A stretch of 64,000 nucleotides of DNA, from contig NC_092350.1 of assembly GCF_963676685.1 (NCBI RefSeq), positions 40,424,001-40,488,000 on the forward strand. The letters run 5' to 3'. The DNA is from Mytilus edulis. Taxonomy: Eukaryota. Both the position numbers and the translations under genes were made by a program. The notes beneath the pieces are model-generated. The model did not search any database. It was given only the letters and a program-made list of their open reading frames with translations, and was not told the DNA's origin. Position 1 is the stretch's first letter. Every line of letters starts with the position of its first letter. Shown in pieces: positions 5,433 through 62,763 of the stretch.

Positions 5433-8400
5433 TCAACCAAAGGTGGTAGCAGAATCTGACATTGAAGGTGCAAATGTATATAAAGAAACTGTTCCATCGT
5501 TATATGCGGGTACAACTATGTCTGTATAGCCGTCAGCGTTGACATCAGCAAAAGCAAATTGTCCAACTGTTCCCTTGCCAACGTCTACAAACTTATGTGA
5601 TAGGTAGGACCAGTCGTCTGTGCGAGAACTGGATGGTTCCAATATATACCCCTTGCCATCATCATCCCCGGATACCAGTATGTAAGGTTTCTTATCTCTG
5701 CAGAAAGAAAAAAATATTGCATTCACGGTAGTGTTCACTCAAAGTGCGTTTTCTATAGCATTTCACTATAATTAAACCATTTTAGAAGACTGCTGTTTCA
5801 ATGCTTACGTTGCATACGTTTTAACACGTTTTCCAAAAATATAGTGAGAAAAGGGCATTATTCAAAAGGAATGCATAGTACGTTTTGAGTATATTGCTTT
5901 TAGCACAAAGACTTAATTGTTTGTTTTTATTTTTGGCTTTGCGATTTCAGTTTACTAGTAAGTTTGACTTGGTCAGAATATTTGAAACAACTCTTTTTTC
6001 ATCCTTCTTATTAACAACCGGGAAATCATGTATTCCTTAAACATTGATCATAGTAAAATAACAGCTTCTCATCATGAAAGGAAATAAACTCATCATAGAT
6101 ACCAGGACTAAATTTTGTATAAACGTCTGACGCGCGTTACGTCTACATAAGACTCATCAGTGACGCTCGAATCCCCAAAAGTTAAAAAAGGCCAAATAAA
6201 GTACGAAGTTGAAGAGCATTACGGACCAAAATTGCTAAAAGTTTTGCCAAATACAGCTAAGGTAATATATGACTGAGGTAGAAAAGCCTTAGTTTTTCAG
6301 TAAGGGAGCTACCATTTGATTTTTATGGGGGGGGGGGGCTAGGATGAAAAATTTTGTCCTGCATCTTTAGTTGTAATCTCTGTCCTGCCTTTTTACTTTT
6401 CACTCTATTCGGTCCTGCCTTTTTTTTTATTAGTTTATCCTGACTTTTTTTACCTAAATTGTCATCCTGCCTTTTTTTTTTGCAAAGTGTCTCATCCTGC
6501 CTTTTTTTTTTAATCAAAACTCCTGTCCTGCCTATTTTTTTTCAAATTTCATCCTAGCCCCCCCCCCCCCCCCCCCCCCCGTTGGGAGTCAACATATTAT
6601 ACGTACGTTGTGTTTTGTTTCATTGGGTAAAACCCAAAAGCTGAACCAGGAGCACCTTTTCCTGTCCCTGAAGTAGCTGGTGTAAATCCTGTAGCTAAAG
6701 TGTGACGTTCGAATTTACCAACCCTTTAAAGAAAAGATACCAGTTATGATTAAATTATTTTCAGCCAATATATGTTCTATAATTATACAGATTTACATAG
6801 AAGGCTGTATTGGGTTTTTGATCCGAAAAGGAACTATACTCGTCTTTTTTCCTACAATTCATATATACATGTATATAGCAACGCATTATACTTAATTGGA
6901 TGGATCAGATAAATTATCAGAATTAAAACACAAGACAACCGTGCACCAAACACATACATACAGAGTGGCATGCCAACAGCTATAAAACTAAAATTACGTT
7001 TTACCTAAAATCGTCTGGTATTTCATATGCCAATACGGAACCATTGTTGCCATTGGATACTACAAGTAAATCTTGTTTACCGTCCAGATTAAGATCTCTC
7101 ACTTCTATATCAAATAGGGCTCCTGCATTACTATCAACAACACGAGAATGGATCTGAAAAATACGGTTTTATAAGTATTTTTAAAAGAAACAATGTATAA
7201 GCGTTGATTCTTGAAAAAGAAACTAAGTGTAGAGAACGCCACCTACAGTAGAAACCATACTTTGGAAATATAACTTCATGTCGATTTTTTAATTGATTGC
7301 TTAAATACGTTCTGTTAAATCTTAGAACAATCCCATGATATCAGTTACTCATATGTTGATGGTAATTTCAACTCTTCTTGTGGTCTTCTTTTATAGCACA
7401 AAGCGTTAAAATATGTTGCGACTAAAACTTTCAAATGGGTAATAAAATCATAACTAACATTACTAACGTGATTATTAAAAAAAAACACAAAAAAACACAA
7501 AAAAAAAGCACAGTCGCATAAAAAAAGACCTAAAAAAAGGATTTAAAAACCTTCTTATAAAAATCATGTCAAAAACAAGTAAGTTTTATATCAAATGTGT
7601 TTACTTTGGACTTATCTGTCCATCTGTTCTGGCTGTCGGTCGTCCAATGAATGGATAGTTTACGTGTGAAAAACTCTGTTGTTGCTATAACATCAAGTGT
7701 TCCATCTGGCGTTGCTATTTTCAAATTTCTAAAGTACACATCAGGACCATGTGTGATCACGTGTTCTTGCCATACGGATGTGTATTGGTGGTTGTCAGGA
7801 TTCTCCAACCACAACAACTCGCTGTCCTTTGAGGCTACAATATATAGTAGAAAAGACGTAAGTGAGAGGCTTCAAGCTTAATCTCTTCTGTCAAAATTGA
7901 GTGGACAATTTCCAATTTAAACTTATTGTACATTATAAAGGTAGTCATAGAAATACGCTGAAGAACTAGCTATATATATAGTAGGATAAGAGCATTAGAA
8001 ATTATACAAATGATAAACAAAGCAAGAAAATGATACAAAATTAACAGGTTTATAATTCAAGTACAAACAACGTGTTGCGAACGTACGGTCTCCTACTGAA
8101 GAAACCATACTCGGGCAATATAAATTCAATCATAGTGATTTTATAAATCGTTGCCTTAAAAAAAAACGTTCAGTTTAATTCTTACAACAACCCCATGATA
8201 TCAGTTACACCTATGTTGAAGTTAATTTCAACTATCCTTAGTCTTTTATTAAGAAAACAGAACATTAAAATACGCTGCGAATAAAACGTTGAAATGGATC
8301 TAAACACTGATTTACCAATATCTCGTATTAAAATGTTTTCATTAATGATGTGTTTTAACGAACAATACTTACAGAATATTGTAAAAATAGGTTCTCTGGC

Positions 8401-13359: not shown

Positions 13360-15443
13360 GTTTGACGTAAATTTTACATTGAGGTTCTGAAAAAGGAAAT
13401 CACCAATTCACCAACATTCCAACTGACTCCATTTTCAGAAAACGGAATCTGTAACAAACATAAACTTTTAGCCACCGCTTTACAAGCAGAGCCAAATACA
13501 ATGAAAGTCCCAACTATGTATTGGCTTCCGAAGCTACACAAAACCCCTTACAAATATAGATTTATTTCGTCTTCAAGCCATTGTTCAACTACTAAATTGT
13601 CTATTCTTCTTACCAGCACACTTGGTACAATTAAAAACCTGATAATAAATTGTTCAAATAAGGCCTTCGAAAATAGTGGAATAAATTACTTTTGGAGTGT
13701 CAAGAACTCGTTGGAAGTACTTGATAAATTGCATGCTTATATTGGTGATTTGAATCTGTTCAAAGTTTTGATTTTTCTACCCTGTATACCACATTGCCTC
13801 ACATTCTCATTAAGAAAAAATTCACACACCTAATTAAATGGGCATTCAAAAAATCAGAATGTGAATATATATGTTCAAACTCTTTTAGGTCATTTTTTAG
13901 TAGCAATAAACAAAAAAACTATGTTAATTGGACATGCTTTGATACTATATATGCCCTTGAATTTTTACTAGATAACATTTTTGTTCGCTTTGGAGATTCC
14001 GTATATCGTCAGATTATCGGAATTCCAATGGGGACTAACTGTGCACCACTTATTGCGGACCTGTTTTTGTATTGTTATGAGTTACAATTTATGACAAAAA
14101 TAAGCAAAGACCCATCGAAACAACATCTGATAAACAAATTTAATAATACTTTTAGATATTTGGATGATATTTTTGCTCTCAATAATGACGACTTCAGTAT
14201 GTATTAATGAAATTTATCCTGTTGAACTTACTTTAAATAAAGCTAATACTAACAATGACCACTGCCCTTTTCTCGATCTTGATATCTATATCACTAACGG
14301 AAAGCTGAATACTAAAATTTATGATAAAAGGGATGATTTTTCATTTCCTATCGTTAATTATCCGTTTTTAGATGGTGACGTTCCGTTGTCACCATCTTAC
14401 GGTGTTTATATATCTCAACTTGTACGATTCGCTCGTGTATGTAACAATGTTTTCGATTTTAACGAGAGAAATTTATGTATTACTGAAAAATTATTACACC
14501 AGGGTTTTCGATATCACAAACTAGTCAAAACATTTACTAAATTTTATCATCGGTATAAAGACATCATTCGTAAATATAGCTCAACATGCAGACTTCTAAT
14601 ACGTTCAGGTATTTCACATCCAATTTTTTATGGTAATATTCTTTATAAAGCACAAAAGTGTCAGTATTCACCTCAAAAACTTACAAAACCTTTGAATAGA
14701 CTTATTAAGAAGGGATATAATTACGATACTGTTGTCAAGTCATTAAAGATTGCATATTTTGGCGTTAATATTGAGTCACTGATAAGGTCTTTGCATCGGA
14801 ACTAAACACATTTATTCTAAAAACAGTTGTTGGCATGACACGGGTTATGTTCTTCTCATATATGTTATGATGGTATGATACTAAACCCCTAACGGGAAGG
14901 ATTGTGCCTGATGTTCATATGATGAAATCATAACCTTTCAGTCAGTTTAATTTAAGTCTGGAGCTGGCATGTCAGTTAACTGCTAGTAGTCTGTTGTTAT
15001 TTATGCATTATTGTCATTTTGTTTATTTTCTTTGGTTACATCTTCTGACATCAGACTCGGATTTCTCTTGAACTGAATTTTAATGTGCGTATTGTTATGC
15101 GTTTACTTTACTACATTGGTTAGAGGTATAGGGGGAGGGTTGAGATCTCACAAACATGTTTAACCCCGCCGCATTTTTGCGCCTGTCCCAAGTCAGGAGC
15201 CTCTGGCCTTTGTTAGTCTTGTATTATTTTAATTTTAGTTTCTTGTGTACAATTTGGAAATTAGTATGGCGTTCATTATCACTGGACTAGTATATATTTG
15301 TTTAGGGGCCAGCTGAAGGACGCCTCCGGGTGCGGGAATTTCTCGCTACATTGAAGACCTGTTGGTGACCCTCTGCTGTTGTTTTTTATTTGGTCGGGTT
15401 GTTGTCTCTTTGACACATTCCCCATTTTCATTCTCAAATTTAT
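13360..15443 (+). mobile_element. 5'-truncated Penelope-like (Naiad-type) retroelement, RT with two frameshifts
   Basis: ORFs 13501-13833, 13794-14207, 14164-14805 join into one RT (YWLPKLHKTPYKYRFI, DFSTLYT region, GIPMG, YLDD). Near-identical to the minus copy; 3' UTR runs to 15443. Confidence 0.9.
14856..14922 (+). promoter_or_regulatory. SECIS element (type II) in the retroelement 3' UTR
   Basis: ATGAT(14867)-GGTATGATACT-AAA-CCC.CTAAC.GGG-A-AGGATTGTGCC-TGAT(14909). Helix II pairs at 10 of 11 positions; helix I is TCATAT/ATATGA. Confidence 0.75.
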
Positions 15444-15740: not shown

Positions 15741-16778
15741 GAAGAACATAACCCGTGTCATGCCAACAACTGGTTTTTGAATAAATGTGTTTAGTTCCGA
15801 TGCAAAGACCCTATAAGTGAATCAATATTAACGCCAAAATATGCAATCTTTAATGACCTGACAACAGTCTCGTAACTATAACCTTTCTTAATAAGTCTAT
15901 TCAAAGGTTTTTTTAGTTTTTGAGGTGAATGCTGACACCTTTGTGCTTTATAAAGAATATTTCCATAAAAAATTGGATGTGAAATACCTGAACGTATAAG
16001 AAGTCTGCATGTTGAGCTATATTTACGAATGATGTCCTTACACCGATGATAAAATTTAGTAAATGTTTTGACTAGTTTGTGATATCGAAAACCCTGGTGT
16101 AATAATTTTTCAGTAATACATAAATTTCTCTCGTTAAAATCTAAAACATTGTTACATACACGAGCGAATCGTACAAGTTGAGATATATAAAAACCGTAAG
16201 ATGGTGACAAGGGAACGTCACCATCTAAAAATGGATAATTAACGATAGGAAATGAAAAATCATCTCTTTTATCATAAATTTTAGTATTCAGCTTTCCGTT
16301 AGTGATATAGATATCAAGATCGAGGAAATGGCAGTGGTCATTGTTAGTATTAGCTTTATTTAAAGTAAGTTCAACAGGATAAATTTCTTTAATATACATA
16401 CTGAAGTCGTCATTATTGAGAGCCAAAATATCATCCAAATATCTAAAAGTATTATTAAATTTGTTTATAAGATGTTGTTTCGATGGGTCTTTGCTTATTT
16501 TTGTCATAAATTGTAACTCATAGCAATACAAAAACAGGTCCGCAATAAGTGGTGCACAGTTAGTCCCCATTGGAATTCCGATAATCTGACGATATACGGA
16601 ATCCCCAAAGCGAACAAAAATGTTATCCAGTAAAAATTCAAGGGCATATATAGTATCAAAGCATGTCCAATTAACATAGAAGCCCACTTACTTATTCAGT
16701 ATCAAGAGCTGCACCAAAAGCGCATGACACGTCAATCGCCTCTCAAACTCCTTTTGAGGATTTTAAATGAATAAAAAT

Positions 16779-49238: not shown

Positions 49239-50910
49239 CTAATCGATAACATCATATATAAAATAGTCAGCATAGCTATTAACAACCAATTAATGCTTGC
49301 CTTTTCTATCGAAATGAATCGCGCAAGGTATTTTCAATCCATCCTCTTGCGATAAAAGTATTCTGCTTTGTTTTCCATCAGGTGATATCACCACCACTCG
49401 ATGTAATGTTGAACAAGCAGCATACATGTTTCCACTATTATCAACTGCTATGCCATGTGGATATTTCAATAAACTCTCATCTTTAAATGTCGAAATTTCT
49501 TTTCCGTTTATATCGCAAATTGTGACAGTTCTAGTAAAACCGTTAGTGTAATAAATGATGTTATCAAAAATTTCAATATAGGACCATGAAGGTAAATAAG
49601 ATTTGATGATAAGTTTACTGCTGCCGTCTTGGAGGTTAATTTTGAAAATTCCATCGCTGGAAGCACACACGAACAAAGACCCATTGTGGTGTATTATTCC
49701 AAAGCATTTATAGTTTGTTGGAATGTACTTTGTGACCTTTCCTGTATCAATATCTATAATATTGACACCTTTACGAGAATTTTTTCTTGACGTTGTAGCT
49801 ACGGTTTTATCATCTATATACGTTACATCAAATGCACTGGCAGGCTTTACGCAAACTTTACTAAGTGTCTTCCCGTCGGCACCGAAGAGAGCAACATTTC
49901 CTGTATTCAGATCACTTACTGCAATATTTACGCTGGGTAGTGCAACAATACCTTTAATGTCTGAAAACTCGTGCTGTATTGTTTTCACTAGCCTTAATTT
50001 AATATGACCAATGAATTTAATCCTTGTCTCTACTATCTGAGCTTCTTTATTTTTGTGTCTAATGAGGGGACGTTGATATGGACTTTACTGTATTTTCACT
50101 GACCAAAAAGATGTAATATCATCGCTAATGGTGTCTATTTTGTCATCCATTTTAAGGAGTAACGTGATTTCATCCAAGCTGTGGTCTTTAATGATCGATT
50201 GTAGATACAAATCATTACTAGCTGCTTCTGCAATCCTAAGTACGTTTGAAAGTCAGTCGCGTTCCTGTCAATACCCTGTAACTGTTGTTCAGCATGGTGT
50301 TTAATATTCATCCGGCTTTCTAAAATCTGTAGTGTTTGCTTAATATTTTCGTTTGATTTACTTCTTATCTCAATGATTTCATTTCTTATCGTCTTTTCCA
50401 ATTGATCGAAGTGGGAATTAACTTTGTTCCTTGTATCGATGATCTGGGCTAAAATTGTATTTTCTTGCTGCTTTATACTTCCTCCTTGTTTCTTTAATTC
50501 ACTCAGCAAGTTTTTATGTTTTTATCAATATCTTTCAAACTTAGTCGTGTTTCCTGGAAAAATGACGACTTTTTAACGTTTTCTATCATTTTACGAAGGG
50601 ATACTATACCTTTGCATCCTTCGTGATTCTCAATACATGAGGGGCAAATAAGTTTATCATGAGCTTGGCAAACCATTTGATATTGTTCCGTATGTTCCAT
50701 GCATATACTACTGGTTTGTGAAATTGATGAAGACATCGACAAGTAGTCCTGAATCGATACAGTTACGTGATTTTCGGACGACTTTGAAAATCCATGATAA
50801 TCATTGCAATCTTCACAAAATGCTTGTTTACATTCAGGACACCAGATAGTGGACGGTTTTGTAATATGCCGATGGTCACATATATCGCAATGTTGCTGAA
50901 TTGATGCCAT
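49239..50910 (-). pseudogene. TRIM-NHL-like copy 6 (chimeric pseudogene)
   Basis: ORFs 50503-50958, 50135-50509, 49290-49988; frameshift near 50508, small deletion near 50230, premature stops. Confidence 0.85.
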
Positions 50911-51266
50911 TTTAGCTTTCCTGCAAAGAAAAGTATAAGCATATTGGTTTTGATTCATGTGAAAAAACCTGTATGGATATAATCAATTAACTTGGTTTGT
51001 TTAACACAAAATGTAAACAATTACTGATGTTGTCTGCATTCTATTGACCGAAACTTCACTATCACATTTATTTAATTCATGAAATAAAAAGTTAATTATA
51101 TATAGATCGATTAAATACAAGAATGTAAACTAAAATGTAGGAAACATCTCTACGCTATTAGAGCAATAACAGTGTTGTTTTGTTAAAAAATGTGTATTAT
51201 ATATAATAATAAAATAGTAAAAAGGGTTAATAAAGAAAAATAACATCTACAAAAACAAAAATGTAC

Positions 51267-53629: not shown

Positions 53630-54660
53630 CGGCCTTATTTATAAAAAAAAAAACAATTCCGAAAAACAAATATGACAGACATAACCATTGAAAAACACAG
53701 ATCCATAAAGAATATCGGGTTAAGCATGTGTGTGAGCACTTAACCCAGAACAGTGGTGTAACAGCACAACATAAAAACATAAAAGAGGGACGAAAGATAC
53801 CAAACGGACAGTCAAACTCATAAATCCAAAACAAACTGACAACGCCATGGCTAAAAATGAAAAAGACAAACAGAAAAACAATAGTACACACGACACAACA
53901 TAGAAAACTAAAGAATAAACAACACGAACCCCACCAAAAACTAGGGGTGATCTCAAGTGCTCCGGAAGGGTAAGCAGATCCTGCTCCACATTTGGCACCC
54001 GTCGTGTTGCTTATGTGATTACAAATCCGGTAAATAGTCTAATTCGGTAGGTCATATTCATGAAAGGGAAGGGGATTGTAGTTACGACGTAAGGAACATA
54101 TCCGATATCATTTGTGAAACGGTTATTCCATAACGGTCAACCAACTCGTGATGGCGTCCGTAAAATTTACGAAGGGATGGTTTCAACTTCACCATTTGGA
54201 ACTCTTGGTTTAATAGCTTCCTTGTGAGCAGCAAACCTCTATCAAGAAAATCATGATAGGAAATGCAAGCACGGGAATATCGTATCAATTGGGAGATATA
54301 TACCCCGTATGCAGGTGCTGCTGGAATGTTGCTACTTAGAAATGGAAAGTTCAGAATTGGAAAGCTGAAATCATCTCTTTTGTCGTAAATTTTTGTTTTC
54401 AACCGACCCTCATTGTCAATTTCTAGATGTAAGTCAAGATATGAAGCCGACTTAACTGTATCTGTAGTATCCTTTATCTCTAGTTCGATTGGATAGATGC
54501 GTTCCACATAGTCACCAAATTTTGAATTGTTTAGTGAAAGAACATCATCTATATAGCGGAAAGTAGAGTTAAAGGATATTGCTAACTTCTTATCTTTCTT
54601 CCGACGAAGTTCCTGCATGAAGTCAGCCTCATAATAATAAAGAAACAAGTCGGCGAGTAT
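53630..54660 (-). mobile_element. 5'-truncated Penelope-like retroelement, second family
   Basis: LADLFLY, FRYIDD, SYLDL, YDKRDDFSFPI, YGVYISQLIRY in ORF 54082-54717, followed by a 3' UTR shared with 27885, 47990, 56180 and 58480. Confidence 0.85.
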
Positions 54661-56574
54661 ATTTCTTGCGTATACGTTTCCAGGTGTAAAACTTAGAAAT
54701 TTGTTGAAAAAAACCATACAGAGTCCAAATTATAAAACTCTCAAAACATTAGGCTGTACTTTTCGTCTATTGTTGAAGACTGACTACTGCTCCTAGATGT
54801 CGTTTGGTTTACTTTGTTGTTGAGTTGCTTTCTCATTGACGTACACTTACATGTATGTCATTTTTTTATAAACAGGAATAACACAATATTATGCAGAACA
54901 ATTAAATTAACTTTTTTCAATTTGTCAATGATTCTGCAGCTGCATGGAATTTCATTGCACATTACTGTGGGATTTATTAAAAATTCGGTTTATCTATGGC
55001 ACTACGAACCTAAAACCATTTTATTATCATACTCCAGTCGCTAAATTATATCATAAAAGGTTCTCAGAGCTTTACAAATGGATAGATTATATAATGAAAT
55101 CACATAAACTTATCAAGAGCACTCCAAACTACATAAAGATCCTTTCGACTTTCATCAAACACAAAAATGATGATAATAACAGCATTTCTACACTTAAATA
55201 AAAGGTAATCATTCATAAAGAACAAATAATAATAAGGCAAACATTCGAAATTCTTAATTTAAAATTATTTGTTTTCATCAAGAAAAGAATATACAAGATG
55301 AAGCCTGCCGCCGGATATTCTCGCTGAGTTGTAGATCTATGACCATTGGTGGCCGTAGGTTGGTCTTTGTCCTTTGGTCGGCCATGGCGATTGCAAAAAT
55401 AGACGGATCACCAGATTTACATGTTTATATAGATATTAATATGATTAACTAATCTTGTCATGAATGTTGAAATTATCTAAGAATTCTAATACAAGTTTCC
55501 ATAAATTGTATTCGAAAATCGATAAATGGTTAAATCATAATCTACAAAATTACTGCTTTGAGTAATAAAAGAGTAATTTGAATGCGAATTTAGAATTTGT
55601 GACCATCTTACCATCAAAGACAATGTTGAGAACAGGTTTTTAATTTGGCAATGTTTAAGTATAGTTATCAACATTAGGAACATGTCATCTTCCTTCAGAA
55701 TCTGTTATCTTTCAATTCAAAGGCTAAATTAAATTATGGAAACTTTCACAATACACAAATTACAAATGCTTTAAAAATTAGTTGTCTCCACACCTTATTT
55801 GAATTGTTAACTGAGGTTTATGTACCCTTCTGTAGCCATTTTTGTACGAACTTTTCAAACTTCAATTGTATCAAAACTACAGATATTATGAATAATAGAG
55901 ATAGGCCATTTTGTACATATTCCAAGGGGAAACTTGATGCAAAGCATTATTTTTACTGTTCCATTGCATTTAATAGAAAAAGAGGACTTTGTGGCAAATA
56001 AATCAAGATTTTTATAGAAAATCCACAGCCTTTATCCTTGTACTCTCATATTTGGCAATTTGATGACTGATAGATACAGGATTATTGCATGCAGTGCTAG
56101 CATTGATTTCCTAAAAACAAGTTTATAAACGTAGTTATTGGTTAAGACAAGTATAAATATGGCCAAAATCAAGTACACCTGGGGTTCGTGTTGTTTATTC
56201 TTTAGTTTTCTATGTTGTGTCATGTGTACTATTGTTTTTCTGTTTGTCTTTTTCATTTTTAGCCATGGCGTTGTCAGTTTGTTTTAGATTTATGAGTTTG
56301 ACTGTCCCTTTGGTATCTTTCGTCCCTCTTTTAGGGTGCGCTCGACTTTAGTGACTCAGCACGAGGTGTTTTGGAATTTACAGGTTACTTAGAACTTTTT
56401 GTAAAAAATAAACATATATGATGAGTTTACTTACTAAACCTTTTGGTCTCTAGTGAAGAGTTGTTTCATTGGCAATCAAACCGTATTTTATCTTATATAT
56501 CGTAATAAATATAACTCGTCTAAACATCAGCAAAACTAAGTTATATCTGTAACTTTTTGTTAGGACATTTTTTG

Positions 56575-56675
56575 TTCTTCCTTTGGCGGTACTCGAACTA
56601 ATGCTATTGAGATATCATGGCAACAAATCGCATTGCACTGTGACCGACGCGCTAGACCACTCGACCACCTAGGGT
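56575..56675 (-). mobile_element. tRNA-derived SINE head
   Basis: Minus strand GGTGGTCGAGTGGTCTAGCGCG (A box) ... GTTCGAGTACC (B box); spacing too long and stems too poor for a tRNA. Confidence 0.55.
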
Positions 56676-56798
56676 CTTAAATTGAAATAGCTTTTGGTAT
56701 ATTCTTAAAATTCAAGAGTCTATCTAAAAATGAGGGTACTTTTTTCTAAAAATGAGGGTACTTTTTATATGGCCTTCCAAATACCGTTTCGATCCCTA

Positions 56799-56842
56799 AC
56801 ATCACTGAAGAGACATTTATTGTCGAAATCCGGATCTGGTGT
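56799..56842 (+). ncRNA. Minimal type I hammerhead ribozyme
   Basis: ACATCA-CTGAAGA-GACA-TTTAT-TGTC-GAAA-TCCGGA-TC/TGGTGT; palindromic stem III ATCCGGAT; predicted cut after 56836. Confidence 0.8.
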
Positions 56843-57331
56843 ACTTAAAAAATAGTGACACCGTATGTTTGTGGCATAACATTGTGGCCACAAGTTACAA
56901 AAAAATTCTGTTTAGTATTAAATTTATATTAAGATCCATTTTGTTACATCTTGTGATCAATTTTATTTGGCAATCGCCAATGGCAGTCAGCAGGGTTAAA
57001 GAACATAAGTTTTTCGACCTGTTAGTCAAATGCGTTTTGTTTAAATATACCTTTTCACTTTTTTTGGTTTTTGGGAAATGTTGTTTTTGCTGTTTTTAGA
57101 CCCTTCTACAACATGCACACGTATAAAAATTGCAGTTTTTATCCAACGCAATCATAGGTTTGAACGTAGTTTTCAATTTAGACTTGTTTATATTTTTTCG
57201 TTCGGGCTTGTATCATATCTTCCCTCCGGTTTATATGACCTGTTCATCCTATTGACTCTTGAAATTGAAGAGTCTACCTAAAAATGAGGGTAAACTATAT
57301 ATGGCCTTCCAAATACCGTTTCGATCCCAAC

Positions 57332-57373
57332 CATCACTGAAGAGGCATTTATTGTCGAAATCCGGATCTGGTG
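57332..57373 (+). ncRNA. Minimal type I hammerhead ribozyme
   Basis: CATCA-CTGAAGA-GGCA-TTTAT-TGTC-GAAA-TCCGGA-TC/TGGTG; stem II change A>G keeps pairing (G-U); predicted cut after 57368. Confidence 0.8.
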
Positions 57374-59317
57374 TACAAAAAAAATATTGACATCTTATGT
57401 TTGTGGCATTACATCTTGGCCACTAGTTGATTGTTTTCTGTTTAGTATCAAAGTTATATTAAGATCCATTTTGTTACATCTTGTGATCGATTTCATTTGG
57501 CAATCGCCAATGGCAGTCAGCAGGGTCAAAGAATATCAGTTTAAATATACTTTTTCATTTTTTTGGTCTTTTGGAAAATGTTGTTTGTGCTGTATTTAGA
57601 CCCTTTTATAATGAAATTTGTTTTACATGCACACGTATAAAAATTGCGGTTTGTTTCCAACGCAATCATAGGTTTGAACGTAGTTTTCAATTTAGACTTG
57701 TTTATATTTTTTCGTTCGGGCTTGTATCATATTTTCCCTCCGGTTTATATGATCCGTTCATCCTATTGACTCTTGAAATTCAAGAGTCTATCTAAAAATG
57801 AGACTATATGTGACCCGCCATGACATTTGCAGGCTTATGGAGGTAGAACGTCATTGTTAGAAAAATTATAAACATGATAAATATTGAGATTCAATGAAAT
57901 ACGTATTTGTGAAGAAGAGATAAACACTTTCCTTGGCTTCTTTTTTGCTGACGCCGAACTATACATCATATATAAGTTTTGAAGGAGTTTTACTTTATCG
58001 TTTGAAGTGAAAAATATTTGAATCTACATTTTAAACTGATACACAAAAAATCAAATTTCTGCTCTATAGATTTCCTTTCATAAATGAAATCTGAAATATA
58101 TCCCTAACAAATGCACCGTATAAAATGCATATAAGAGAACACCTACTTATAAACTGTTACGCGTCGCATACTAAGTATAGAGACATGCATAATAAATCTA
58201 ATTTAAAAAAAGGAATTCTTAAAGCTTACTTTGACAAATTTCAAAGTGAAACTAACTTCATTTCAACAAGTTTAAATTACATGTTCTAAAATAGAGCTAA
58301 GAATTGTTTGTATTGTAGTAAATTTAAGTCTTTGAAATTTTATTCAAATACGCTATCGAACATTACTAAGAGCCAATAAATACAATAATTTTTGTATTTT
58401 ATAAATTAGTGCCTTCAATAAATAAAAGCCGTCATAGAACAGTCTCATTTTCATACCGATATTCGAAATCACTCGTTACATTTTTACTGACACCATCACG
58501 AGTTGATTGACCGTAATGGAATATCCGTTTCACAGATTATATTGGATATGTTCCGAATATCGTAACTACATCCCCGTTCTCTTTGGACGAATGTAACCTT
58601 GCGAATAAGACAAATTACAGGGGTTGTAATAACATGAGCAACACGAAGAGTGCCACATGTGGAACAGGATCTGCTTACCCTTCCAGAGCACATGAGAACA
58701 CCTGAGAACAAACCCAGTTTTGGTGGGGTTCGTGTTGCTTAGTCTTTAGTTTTCTATGTTGTGTTTTGTGTACTATTATCCTGCTGTTTGTCTTTTTTTT
58801 TTAGCCATGGCGTTGTCAGTTTATTTTTTATATATAAGTTTGAATGCCCCTCTGGAATCGTTCGCCCCTTCTTTAAGCCCTTTATGGCTGATGGTTTTAG
58901 TTTGTTGTTATGTTTTACTGTTACACCACTGTTACAGGTGAAAGGGAGGGTTGTGATCCCGCTAATATGTTTAATCCCGCCACATTCTATAGGTATGTTT
59001 CTGTCCAAAGTCAGGAGCCTGTAATTCAGTAGTTGTCGTTTATTGCTGTGTTGCATATTAGTTTTTCGTTCATTCTTTTGTACATTAAACAGTCTACTAG
59101 TTTTCTAGTTTGAATTGTTTTACATTTGTCATGTCGGGCAATGGGTTTGCTCATTGTTGAGGGCCGTCCGATGAGATAAAATTGTTTATTTCTGTGTCAT
59201 TTTGTCTTTTGTCTCTTGTGAAGGATAGTCTCATTTTTGTTAAATTATATTGGTTAAAATGATACTTTTTTGGAAACATTCTGTGATTGTGCTTTTGTGA
59301 AACACCTTTTAATTCTT

Positions 59318-60700
59318 GGATCAAGTATAGAATACGTGATTGTAGTACCATCGGACTGATATTTAAGTCAAATGAAGTAAATCGGTTCTGATACAAATTA
59401 CATAATTGTAGTACCATCGGACTTATATTTAAGTCAAATGAAGTAAATCGGTTTTTATACAAGTTAAATTATTTTCCAGGTTTTTTATTTGAAGATTGTA
59501 GTTATGTTTAATCGCCATATTAAGTTGGGATCGACAGGTCGACAGGTCGACAGGCCGACATGTCGATAGGTCGACATGTAGACAGGTTGACAGGTCGACA
59601 GGCCGACAGGCCGACAGGTCGATAGGTCAATGGTGACTGTTTAAAAAAGAAACTAACACCCAACAAGCAGTAACACAATACGATACAGTTCAATTGCTGA
59701 CTTGTCGACTTGCTGACTATTTTTATTGAGTACTCAACTCCCCCCTACACAACATCCTGACTTAATGACAAATAATCTATGGATAACATGAAACATCTGC
59801 TGACCTGTCGACCTGTCGTCCTGCTGACCTGTCGACCTGTCGACTTGCTGACCTGTCGACCTGTCGACTTGCTGACCTGTCGACCTGTTAACCTGTCGAC
59901 CTGCTGACCTGTCAACCTGCTGACATGTCGACCTGTCGTCCTGCTGACATGTCGACCTGCTGACATGTCGACCTGCTGACCTGTCGACCTGCTGACCTGT
60001 CGACCTGTAGACCTGCTGACCTGTTGACCCGTCGACCTGCTGACCTGTCGCCCTGCTGACCTGTCGACCTGCTGACCTGTCGACTTGCTGACTATTTAAC
60101 TGAGTACCAAACCTTCCCTCTACACAACATCCTGACTTAATGACTAATGATATATGGATAACATGAAACATCTTCTGACCTGTTGTCCTGCTGACCTGTC
60201 GACCTGCTGACCTGTCGACCTGACGACCTGCTGACCTGTCGACCTGCTGACCTGTCAACCTGCTGACCTGTCGACTTGCTGACTATTTAACTGAGTACCA
60301 AACCTTCCCTCTACACAACATACTGACTTAATGACTAATAATCTATGGATAACATGAAACATCTTCTGACCTGTTGTCCTGCTGACCTGTCGACCTGCTG
60401 ACCTGTCGACCTGACGACCTGCTGACCTGTCGACCTGCTGACCTGTAAACTTGCTGACTATTTAATTGAGTATCCAACCTCATGCTAGTCCCTATCCACA
60501 TTGACATATTAACAGCTGTTATGTTAACCCCCAAAAACACCGACCCACAAGAACATATTTAATGTTTCAGCGAATGAATATTTCGATTATTGCCGGAACT
60601 AGGCCTTCAGATTGTTGCGCGCCTAAACATATTTAAAGTATTGGCGTATGGATATTTCGAATATTGCCGGAACTACTTAAACGTATTCTATACTTGGGCC
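59318..60700. mobile_element. Non-autonomous DNA transposon (GG termini, 8-bp TSD; Merlin-like) carrying a satellite
   Basis: TIRs GGATCAAGTATAGAATACGT / ACGTATTCTATACTTGGGCC (18/20); TSD TAATTCTT at 59310-59317 and 60701-60708; absent at the paralogous site near 48860. Confidence 0.8.
59531..60480. repeat. 8/16-mer minisatellite (ACCTGTCG/ACCTGCTG) in higher-order repeats
   Basis: Arrays are separated by an about 90-bp spacer repeated at 59710, 60085 and 60276 (partial at 60451); an inverted arm lies at 59531-59628. Confidence 0.9.
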
Positions 60701-61080: not shown

Positions 61081-62763
61081 CTAATCGATACCATCATATA
61101 TAAAATAGTCACCATAGTTATTAATAACCAATAGATGCTTGCCTTTTCTATCGAAATGAATCGCACAAGGATTTCTCAATGCATCATCTTGCGACAAAAG
61201 TATTCTGCAATGTTGTCCATCAGGTGATATCACCACAACGTGATGTGATTTTGAACAAGCAACGTCCACGTTTCCACTATTATCAACTGCTATGCCATGT
61301 GGATATTTCAATATTCTTTCATTTTTAAATGTCCAAATTTCCTTCCCGTTCATGTCACAAGACGTTACAGTTCTCGTACCATCGTTAGTATAATAAATGA
61401 TGTTATCAAAAATTTCAATATAAGACCATGAAGGTAAATCAGATCTGATGATAAGAGTACTGCTGCCGTCTAGGAGGTTAAGTTTGAAAATGCCCTCGGT
61501 GAAAGCACACACGAACAATGACCCATTGTGGTGTGTTATTCCATAGCATTTATATTTTGTTGGAATATACTTTGTTACTTTTTCTAGAGAAATATCTACT
61601 ATATTGACACCTATACGCGAACCAATATCTGACGTTGTAGCCACGGTTATATCGTCTATATATGTTACATCAAATGCATTGGCAGGCTTTACAGAGACTT
61701 TACTTGGTATCTTCCTGTTAGTACTGAAGATAGCAACATTTCCTGTACTCTGACCACTAATTGCAATATTTCCGCTAGGTAGTGCAACAATGCCTTTAAT
61801 GTCTGAAAACTCGTGTTTTATAGTTTTCACTAGCCTTAACTTAATATCACCAATGGATTTAATCCTAGTCTCTACAATTTGAGCTTCTTTATTTTTGTGT
61901 CTAATAAGGGAAAGTTTATAAGGAGTTTTCTGTAATTCCACTGACCCAAAAGTTGTAATATCATCACAAATGGTATCAATTTTGTCATCAATGTTAAGGA
62001 GTAAAGTGGTTTCATCCACGCTGTGGTCTTCAATGATCGACTGCAGGTACGACTCAGTAGTTGCTGCTTCTGACGAGATCTTCCTCAATCCAAGGTACGT
62101 TTGAAGGTCAGTACCGTACCTGTCTATGTCATGTAATTGTTTTTCAGCATGATGTGTATTAGTATTGCTGCTTTCTAGCATCTGTAATGTTTGTTTAATA
62201 CTATGATTTGATTCACTTGTTATCTCGATGATTTCATTTCTTATCTTCTTTTCCAATTTATCGAACTGGTCATTAATCTTTTTCTTTGTTTCTATGATCC
62301 GGGCTAAAATGTTTTCTTCCTGTCTCTCTAAACTTTCTTGTTGCTTCTTTAATTCACTTTGTAGAGTTTTGATGTTTTGATCAATATCTTTCAAGCTTTG
62401 TTTTGTTTCTTGGAATAGTGACGACTTTTTAACGTTTTCTAATACCTTACTAAGGGGTACTATACCTTTGCATTCATCATGATTCTCAATACATTTCAGG
62501 CAGAGAAGTTCATCGTGAGCTTTGCAAATCATTTGGTATTGTTCATTATGTTCATTGCACATATTACTCGTTTGAGAAATCGAAGACATTGCCGAGTAAT
62601 CCTGAATCGATACAGTAACGTGATGTTTGGACGACCTTGAAAAGCCATGATAATCAGTACAGTCGTCACAAAATGCTTGTTCACATTCGGGGCACCAGAC
62701 TGTGGATGGTTTTGTAATATGTCGATGATCACAGATATCACAAAGTTGGTGAGATGCCGCCAT
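61081..62763 (-). CDS. RING-less TRIM-NHL-like protein, copy 7 (560 aa)
   Basis: Intact ORF with two B-boxes, coiled coil and NHL-like repeats; acceptor TTTTTTTTCAG 10 nt upstream of the ATG. Confidence 0.92.
   Translation of the reverse strand: MAASHQLCDICDHRHITKPSTVWCPECEQAFCDDCTDYHGFSRSSKHHVTVSIQDYSAMSSISQTSNMCNEHNEQYQMICKAHDELLCLKCIENHDECKGIVPLSKVLENVKKSSLFQETKQSLKDIDQNIKTLQSELKKQQESLERQEENILARIIETKKKINDQFDKLEKKIRNEIIEITSESNHSIKQTLQMLESSNTNTHHAEKQLHDIDRYGTDLQTYLGLRKISSEAATTESYLQSIIEDHSVDETTLLLNIDDKIDTICDDITTFGSVELQKTPYKLSLIRHKNKEAQIVETRIKSIGDIKLRLVKTIKHEFSDIKGIVALPSGNIAISGQSTGNVAIFSTNRKIPSKVSVKPANAFDVTYIDDITVATTSDIGSRIGVNIVDISLEKVTKYIPTKYKCYGITHHNGSLFVCAFTEGIFKLNLLDGSSTLIIRSDLPSWSYIEIFDNIIYYTNDGTRTVTSCDMNGKEIWTFKNERILKYPHGIAVDNSGNVDVACSKSHHVVVISPDGQHCRILLSQDDALRNPCAIHFDRKGKHLLVINNYGDYFIYDGID

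Follow-up and report, generated by a model that had tools for sequence, protein, structure and literature searches.

A tandem hammerhead repeat of Mytilus edulis, probably a two-unit retrozyme insertion from a family whose 3' end resembles that of Penelope-like elements

The array and its surroundings

The window, i.e. the whole 64,000-nt stretch of Mytilus edulis DNA analysed here (NC_092350.1, positions 40,424,001 to 40,488,000, forward strand), holds an insertion of about two units arranged head to tail, delimited by BLAST and motif scan at 56703..57802 (+). A first-pass annotation, made from the sequence alone, had placed a hammerhead array at 56704..57802; its place held, with a BLAST start at 56703 and a possible extension to the TATAT that ends at 57809. 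The array sits between two tandem minus-strand single-exon genes (49290-50982 and 61081-62763), whose start and end we take to be B-box-like and propeller-like, respectively. These genes are 79-85 % identical as DNA, the former being broken and the latter keeping a 560-aa ORF. Inverted arrays of an 8-nt repeat (GACAGGTC / GACCTGTC) with a 191-nt higher-order unit, foldback- or transposon-end-like in aspect, lie at 59531-60480, and remnants of Naiad-like reverse transcriptases (RT) were seen at 13366-14577, 16019-16669 and 54088-54684.

Two same-strand hammerheads were located by motif scan and constrained fold. The first (56799..56842, +) is of type I with a helix I of 6 bp, the core CUGAAGA at 56805-56811, helix II at 56812-56824 (4 bp, GACA/UGUC), then GAAA, a palindrome at 56828-56835 and a predicted cut after 56836. 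The second (57332..57373, +) has a helix I of 5 bp, its core at 57337-57343, a helix II of 4 bp (GGCA/UGUC, including one G-U pair), its palindrome at 57360-57367 and a predicted cut after 57368. Both carry the palindrome AUCCGGAU and an AUC triplet. The scan thus reproduced the positions given earlier for two intact motifs with cuts 532 nt apart. They had been called minimal hammerheads: they are intact, but helix I of about 6 bp, helix II of 4 bp and a short, weak palindromic helix III make a canonical metazoan type I architecture according to the definitions found in the text of PMC4209133, which oppose this form to the minimal one of Penelope-like elements (PLEs). Neither the long helix II nor the extra nucleotide after the core that mark the minimal type occurs in the window hammerheads. 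Rfam returned 0 matches at the gathering score. On the two strands of the window taken together, the motif scan gave three hammerheads, two in the array and one of another family. The latter, at 33062-33031 (minus) in a short fragment, has the core CUGAUGA, the palindrome ACGCGCGU and a GUC triplet.

The predicted cut-to-cut monomer (56837..57368, +, from motif positions) is 532 nt long, with 34 % GC and no conserved ORF. Positions within the unit are given below on a natural reference copy (L002:1501-2046), numbered from the cut; the window insertion spans reference positions 435-546, 1-546 and 1-466, and its monomer matches the reference at 91 % identity and lacks 14 nt of it. The two window units are 92 % identical (459/498 aligned columns) and differ by indels, in agreement with the initial description of conserved cores in diverging units. 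As its units are 92 % alike, the window copy is older than the active arrays described below, and it is probably a passive, older product. A 22-nt tandem duplication revealed by repeat comparison (56723..56766, +) is a frequent length variant of the family, present at many sampled loci. Two internal copies of the family's fixed 3' end signal are recognisable in the sequence, one at 57141..57193 (+; ATCCA ... TAGAC at 57179 ... TATAT) and one at 57655..57707 (+), the first box of which is mutated to TTCCA and the TAGAC of which is at 57693.

The insertion is flanked by TATAT on its 5' junction (56698..56702, +) and on its 3' side (57805-57809), a possible target microhomology; any target-site duplication is obscured by the TA tracts. 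End comparison showed the 3' end, ACTATAT (57803..57809, +), to be atypical and away from the fixed end of the family, and only 1/151 sampled fragments ends where the window copy does. The array begins at reference position 435 after one TATAT, a second TATAT closing it near 466-480, and this odd end may result either from priming at an internal TATAT or from a later deletion between two TATATs. Its 5' end is abutted by a degenerate (77 %) tRNA-related TA-landing repeat (56505..56698, minus strand, by BLAST), a neighbour that lies outside the element.

Copy number, ends and insertion sites of the family

The genome comprises 1.37 Gb and 14 large contigs. The exact 32-nt core of the window hammerheads was matched 533 times against 0 for the reversed control, and this core is therefore not a chance occurrence. 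Two core variants, i.e. a form with another palindrome (AUCUAGAU) and a form with an AUA triplet, added 191 and 54 exact matches (controls 0). The genome-wide count that had been suggested thus yields at least 778 exact cores and a dispersed family; additionally, 1361 exact copies were counted for a 26-mer close to the 3' end. Units are mostly 543-577 nt long, so that the 532-nt monomer holds as the spacing of the window copy, a deletion form, but not as the length of the family. Likewise, the assignment to a long-unit retrozyme family stands for the retrozyme type, while the length falls within the 51-972 bp range of the class and is not unusual. The family has no conserved ORF and no LTR, and its GC content is 0.33-0.34. 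Our data support a tandem, non-coding retroelement family with one hammerhead per unit, distinct from the other hammerhead family of the window, as first proposed.

In order to describe its ends, BLAST hits from 170 loci, chosen by exact motifs and mostly on contigs C1 and C2, were merged into 167 fragments, of which 151 of at least 60 nt with both ends in view were kept. The 3' end fell at reference positions 360-376 in 95/151 fragments; TATA was found within 12 nt behind this end in 68/95 and in front of the insertion in 53/95. TATA/ATAT runs occur at nine or more places in the unit, and ends pile up only at the run behind TAGAC. The 5' ends of the 95 fixed-end fragments were spread over the unit in a way indistinguishable from uniform (KS p 0.26). 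The other 56/151 fragments, the window copy among them, end elsewhere than at the fixed point. Among the apparent ends in general, some result from copies broken by a later insertion. The combination of one fixed 3' end with ragged 5' ends is a known mark of target-primed reverse transcription, and the family is dispersed, multi-copy and endowed with the marks of retrotransposition. A linear monomer was considered as template and rejected: 5' ends do not pile up at the cut site (within 3 nt in 2/95), which is crossed by 67/95 fragments. Since 5' ends pass freely through the cut site, the template would have been circular or uncut.

We further examined whether the unit belongs to a larger element. 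The refuting case raised at the outset, in which some autonomous element would have this unit as its terminal repeat and nothing more, was checked on 150 upstream flanks: none (0/150) runs into an ORF, and in these flanks the unit is not continuous with any ORF coding for RT and GIY-YIG. Sequences that some of the flanks share are other repeats, mostly the tRNA-related one, or duplicated loci. In L046, L049/L051 and L054, Penelope-like ORFs next to the array were tried as parents and proved to be separate elements nested in TA tracts. The unit could nonetheless be the pseudo-LTR (pLTR) of an unsampled autonomous PLE, the arrays then being 5'-truncated or tandem debris. Its PLE-like 3' end and its TA targeting would agree with such an origin, as would the homology of Xenopus retrozymes to pLTRs in the accessible part of bioRxiv 10.64898/2026.07.22.740005, and the helpers sampled here amount to five families. 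Against it, only 1/95 fixed-end fragments has its 5' end at the unit boundary (366-376), and the 52/95 that are longer than one unit all continue in unit sequence. Sense matches to RT-GIY proteins were met in 5/150 flanks, 426-954 nt away, with a TA tract, some other repeat or an end of their own lying in between. Moreover, the PLEs sampled carry a different hammerhead core, of the minimal type, and share with the unit no BLAST-detectable stretch over 26 nt. We consider this origin very unlikely.

Ribozyme variants and array structure

Within the same unit type, the palindrome AUCCGGAU is replaced by AUCUAGAU in the 191 cores mentioned above, a double change that preserves the palindrome. Among 166 cores tallied, 144 are palindromic (121 + 17, and 6 from the other family), and a wobble intermediate, AUCUGGAU, was found in 6/166; the triplet is AUC in 154, AUA in 10 and AUU in 2. 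As the palindrome and the NUH triplet survive double changes, the ribozyme appears to be under selection, and the double change of the palindrome is a natural compensatory change that speaks for cleavage by dimeric hammerheads.

In three young arrays of five cores flanked by TA, the units differ at 0-2 positions (L351, L347) or 2-4 positions (L348). An array of 11 cores (L344, G000:C6:52924978-52930735, minus) has an ABAB structure: units at lag 2 differ at 0-2 positions and those at lag 1 at 21-24, and intact palindromes alternate with broken ones (duplex -10.9 vs -0.8 kcal/mol). Such an array is what one expects of a two-unit circle cleaved at its intact ribozyme alone; repeated duplication of two units at the DNA level would give the same picture. 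Indeed, an array of about 30 units of the AUCUAGAU subfamily (G000:C8:56979076-56993325, L345 and L346) is a mosaic with lag-6 duplications, so that expansion at the DNA level also occurs and could explain L344. As a side remark, this C8 array is a retrozyme turning into a satellite.

Predicted circles are 53-60 % paired and hardly exceed shuffles in stability, with z of -0.6 to -1.8 (-0.9 for the 350-nt family described below), and the hammerhead fold of the monomer lies far above the minimum (-1.9 vs -8.1). A conserved hairpin behind the fixed end was looked for, reached a z of -1.9 at best and was discarded. At L191:7190-7218 and 8106-8135, a pair of degenerate sister hammerhead cores spaced by 916 nt possibly belongs to yet another family.

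Transcripts

Raw reads of four RNA runs (X21, X22, X23 and X24), taken from two studies, were mapped at 88 %, then at 96 % to one AUA copy, the strand being assigned as is usual for such libraries. In the 88 % mapping, reads of X21 and X22 came with a strong bias from the ribozyme strand. Six alleles that are rare in the genome (1/155 to 9/219) made up 70-89 % of the sense reads in these two runs, and the rare alleles mark a 573-nt AUA subfamily (14/14 alleles) with 54 cores in about 36 loci. On the AUA copy at 96 %, mean sense depth (means of bins) was about 230 in X21 and about 410 in X22, antisense was almost absent from the half that holds the ribozyme (one bin at 357:1 and 673:3 sense to antisense, respectively), and depth fell below 1 in the 3' flank. 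On the sense strand, 118 and 224 joints led back by 572-574 nt. This young subfamily thus gives sense, head-to-tail RNA in 2/4 runs; in X23 and X24 the dominant subfamily was scarce and antisense more frequent. The dominant AUA haplotypes of X21 and X22 differ (L309; one site 0/403 vs 276/620), so that AUA expression differs by individual. The 14-nt deletion of the window copy is absent among the gaps listed, the RNA coming from other individuals, and the window copy is therefore at most a minor RNA source.

Read ends did not pile up at the predicted cut in X21-X24, joints at the cut site (2 reads each) were too few to count, and flank exit was absent among the listed loose ends of X21 and X22. 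Head-to-tail joints without flank exit are compatible with a circle or with a long uncut multimer. The template might accordingly be a linear, mostly uncut multi-unit transcript, the hammerhead being slow or serving another role, circles being rare and arrays growing also by unequal crossing-over. The lack of read ends at the cut and the weak folding of the circles agree with this explanation, together with the heterogeneous or higher-order arrays (L345, L346, L349 and L350) and the low activity of comparable motifs in the available text of PMC4209133 and bioRxiv 10.64898/2026.07.22.740005. However, reading through some 36 AUA loci should often exit into flanks, which was seen in none of the listed loose ends; the palindrome and the triplet are kept through double changes; and the mussel retrozymes of 350 nt are mostly circular according to the text of PMC7229834. 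A linear template thus seems unlikely to us.

A 3' end signal common to the unit and to Penelope-like elements

The fixed 3' end of the unit reads TTTAGAC, 5 nt, TATAT; shuffles place WTAGRC at this spacing from a given point with a probability of 0.002. All seven common 3' ends of four families coding for RT-CxxC-GIY proteins read WTAGRC, 2-4 nt, TATA, and a fifth family, with RT followed by GIY-YIG, ends likewise; ATCCR..WTAGRC..TATA is thus common to the unit and five families (seen from 150 scored out of 3368 and out of 3175 candidates). The ATCCR box precedes the last YAGRC by about 38-42 nt. A second YAGRC lies 87-94 nt upstream in four of the families and 95-96 nt upstream in the unit, and three families use both such 3' sites.

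A profile built from the four families alone scored up to 5.5 bits on the unit (0/1000 shuffles), and a longer-window profile 6.5 bits (1/1000 shuffles), both TAGAC sites of the unit being matched. In L002 the best match is the upstream TAGAC (244-271) and not the true end, which scores 4.0 bits, a value reached somewhere by at least 5/1000 shuffles; in the AUA subfamily it scores 5.6 bits. The short-window profile found nothing in the 350-nt family, Naiad or the tRNA-related repeat. A degenerate end pattern matched the genome 1747 times against 12 for the control, and the first 100 listed of these 1747 matches comprised 42 copies of the unit, 55 of these PLEs and 3 others; the patterns of both the profile test and the genome search were drawn up after the unit had been seen. 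Anchored alignment of the unit with the four families gave z of only 1.4-3.9.

The proposed helpers have Pfam RVT_1 followed by GIY-YIG, with a CX2-5CxxC linker in 18/18 long ORFs. Judged by this domain order, the helper is likely an RT of the Neptune/Nematis type, a narrower choice than Penelope-like RTs in general. Young families of such elements (L167, L170, L269-L271 and L272-L273) have intact ORFs of 911-959 aa, atypical hammerhead-like cores in their 3' UTR and a choice of two 3' ends spaced by about 90 nt.

The genome also harbours a 350-nt family, represented by an array of four cores (L060:7112-8198, i.e. G000:C1:99726111-99727197, minus), whose hammerhead, with the palindrome AUGCGCAU, is sister to that of the unit: 45 nt are common to both, at 88-92 % identity. 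The body of the 350-nt unit plainly resembles the 5' start of Naiad. The unit might then owe its mobility to Naiad or to another RT, the likeness around TAGAC being chance or a relic. In addition to the sister ribozyme, this is favoured by the abundance of Naiads (8324 candidates in the genome) and by their preference for (TA)n in the part of PMC8557442 consulted. On the other hand, BLAST of the unit against 20 Naiad loci gave nothing beyond the ribozymes that neighbouring repeats carry and a single AT-rich match of 24 nt (E 0.16), and the Naiad hairpin was not found in the unit. The one Naiad family examined, i.e. these 20 loci, ends at TTGCCTTTATTT, in TTTATTT and not (TA)n, and lacks the motif. 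We regard a Naiad-type helper for the unit as highly improbable. Judging from their sequences, the 350-nt family carries a Naiad signal and the 543-577-nt unit a Neptune-type signal, and their helpers apparently differ.

Proposed origin and relation to known systems

The family shares the testable marks of metazoan non-LTR retrozymes as given in the text of PMC7229834, i.e. one hammerhead per unit, a non-coding and dispersed nature, and ribozyme-strand RNA (of the AUA subfamily); it would thus be a hammerhead-bearing non-LTR retrozyme, its cleavage being predicted. We give a probability of about 0.7 to the array of the window being an aged two-unit insertion of such a retrozyme, for which a Penelope-like RT of the Neptune/Nematis type likely used a probably circular RNA as template and (TA)n as target; cleavage, circles and the identity of the helper are what we infer. 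Multi-unit transcripts would be cut by paired hammerheads, with helix III formed between two palindromes, and a host ligase would close the monomer. The GIY-YIG endonuclease of the helper would then nick a TA tract, and its RT would start at the UAUAU just behind WUAGAC and run round the circle, leaving arrays of any length.

On a more tentative note, and with somewhat less than even confidence, we propose that the hammerhead is an exchangeable module, set in nearly identical form on two unrelated RNA bodies of this genome, one with a Naiad and one with a Neptune-type signal, that ATCCR..WUAGRC..UAUA is the long-missing start signal of Penelope RTs, and that the ABAB array is the fossil of a two-unit circle.

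The non-LTR retrozymes of Mytilus galloprovincialis, as the text of PMC7229834 describes them, resemble the family in their type I hammerhead per tandem unit, low GC content, absence of ORF, LTR, PBS and PPT, and abundant RNA. They differ in size, with 350-390 bp there and units of 543-577 nt here. The 350-nt family of our genome, with its sister ribozyme and palindrome AUGCGCAU, fits that published size and differs from the unit by all but about 45 nt, having a Naiad 5' sequence where the unit has a (TA)n end with the Neptune-type signal. By size and by sequence, judged from the text description and from the 350-nt family of this genome, the family is therefore not the published mussel retrozyme.

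According to the accessible part of bioRxiv 10.64898/2026.07.22.740005, in which no molluscs appear among the species sampled, animal retrozymes derive from PLEs and are non-autonomous, and 8/9 dimers tested were uncleaved and 1/9 cleaved. Its tandem hammerhead repeats are tied to PLEs, as here, and their 51-972 bp range includes the unit. The relation differs: homology to pLTRs is reported there for Xenopus, whereas the ribozyme of the mussel unit does not come from the pLTR of its likely helper, with which a short 3' signal is shared. With the Neptune/Nematis EN+ PLEs, as outlined in the portions of PMC8557442 and PMC4209133 consulted, the family has in common a fixed 3' end, 5' truncation, partial tandems, a (TA)n target and a hammerhead and, in this genome, the end signal; it differs by the absence of ORF and by its canonical hammerhead architecture, in contrast to the minimal core with a long helix II and an extra nucleotide.

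The retrozyme class and its general link to PLEs are already in print. What is apparently new is the specific end signal and the sharing of a ribozyme by two bodies whose helpers apparently differ. The literature searched, mostly open-access text, describes no mussel family of 545-575 nt and no such end signal, and PMC10886601 and PMC10294476 add nothing on either; both may still be on record. In a 2020 review (PMC7761336), no conserved motif in animal retrozymes points to the mobilising element. The present family offers a short fixed-end box common to intact helper ORFs (911-959 aa) in the same genome, and a few point mutations would suffice to test both the choice of helper and how Penelope-type reverse transcription starts.

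The tRNA-related repeat, which often lies beside the 543-577-nt family, ends in TTTAGAC..TATA without the ATCCR box. Copies were located at 56505-56698 of the window, L046:5331-6850 and L309:1786-1875, and its tandem form of about 441 nt reached RNA depths near 1000-1400 in three runs.
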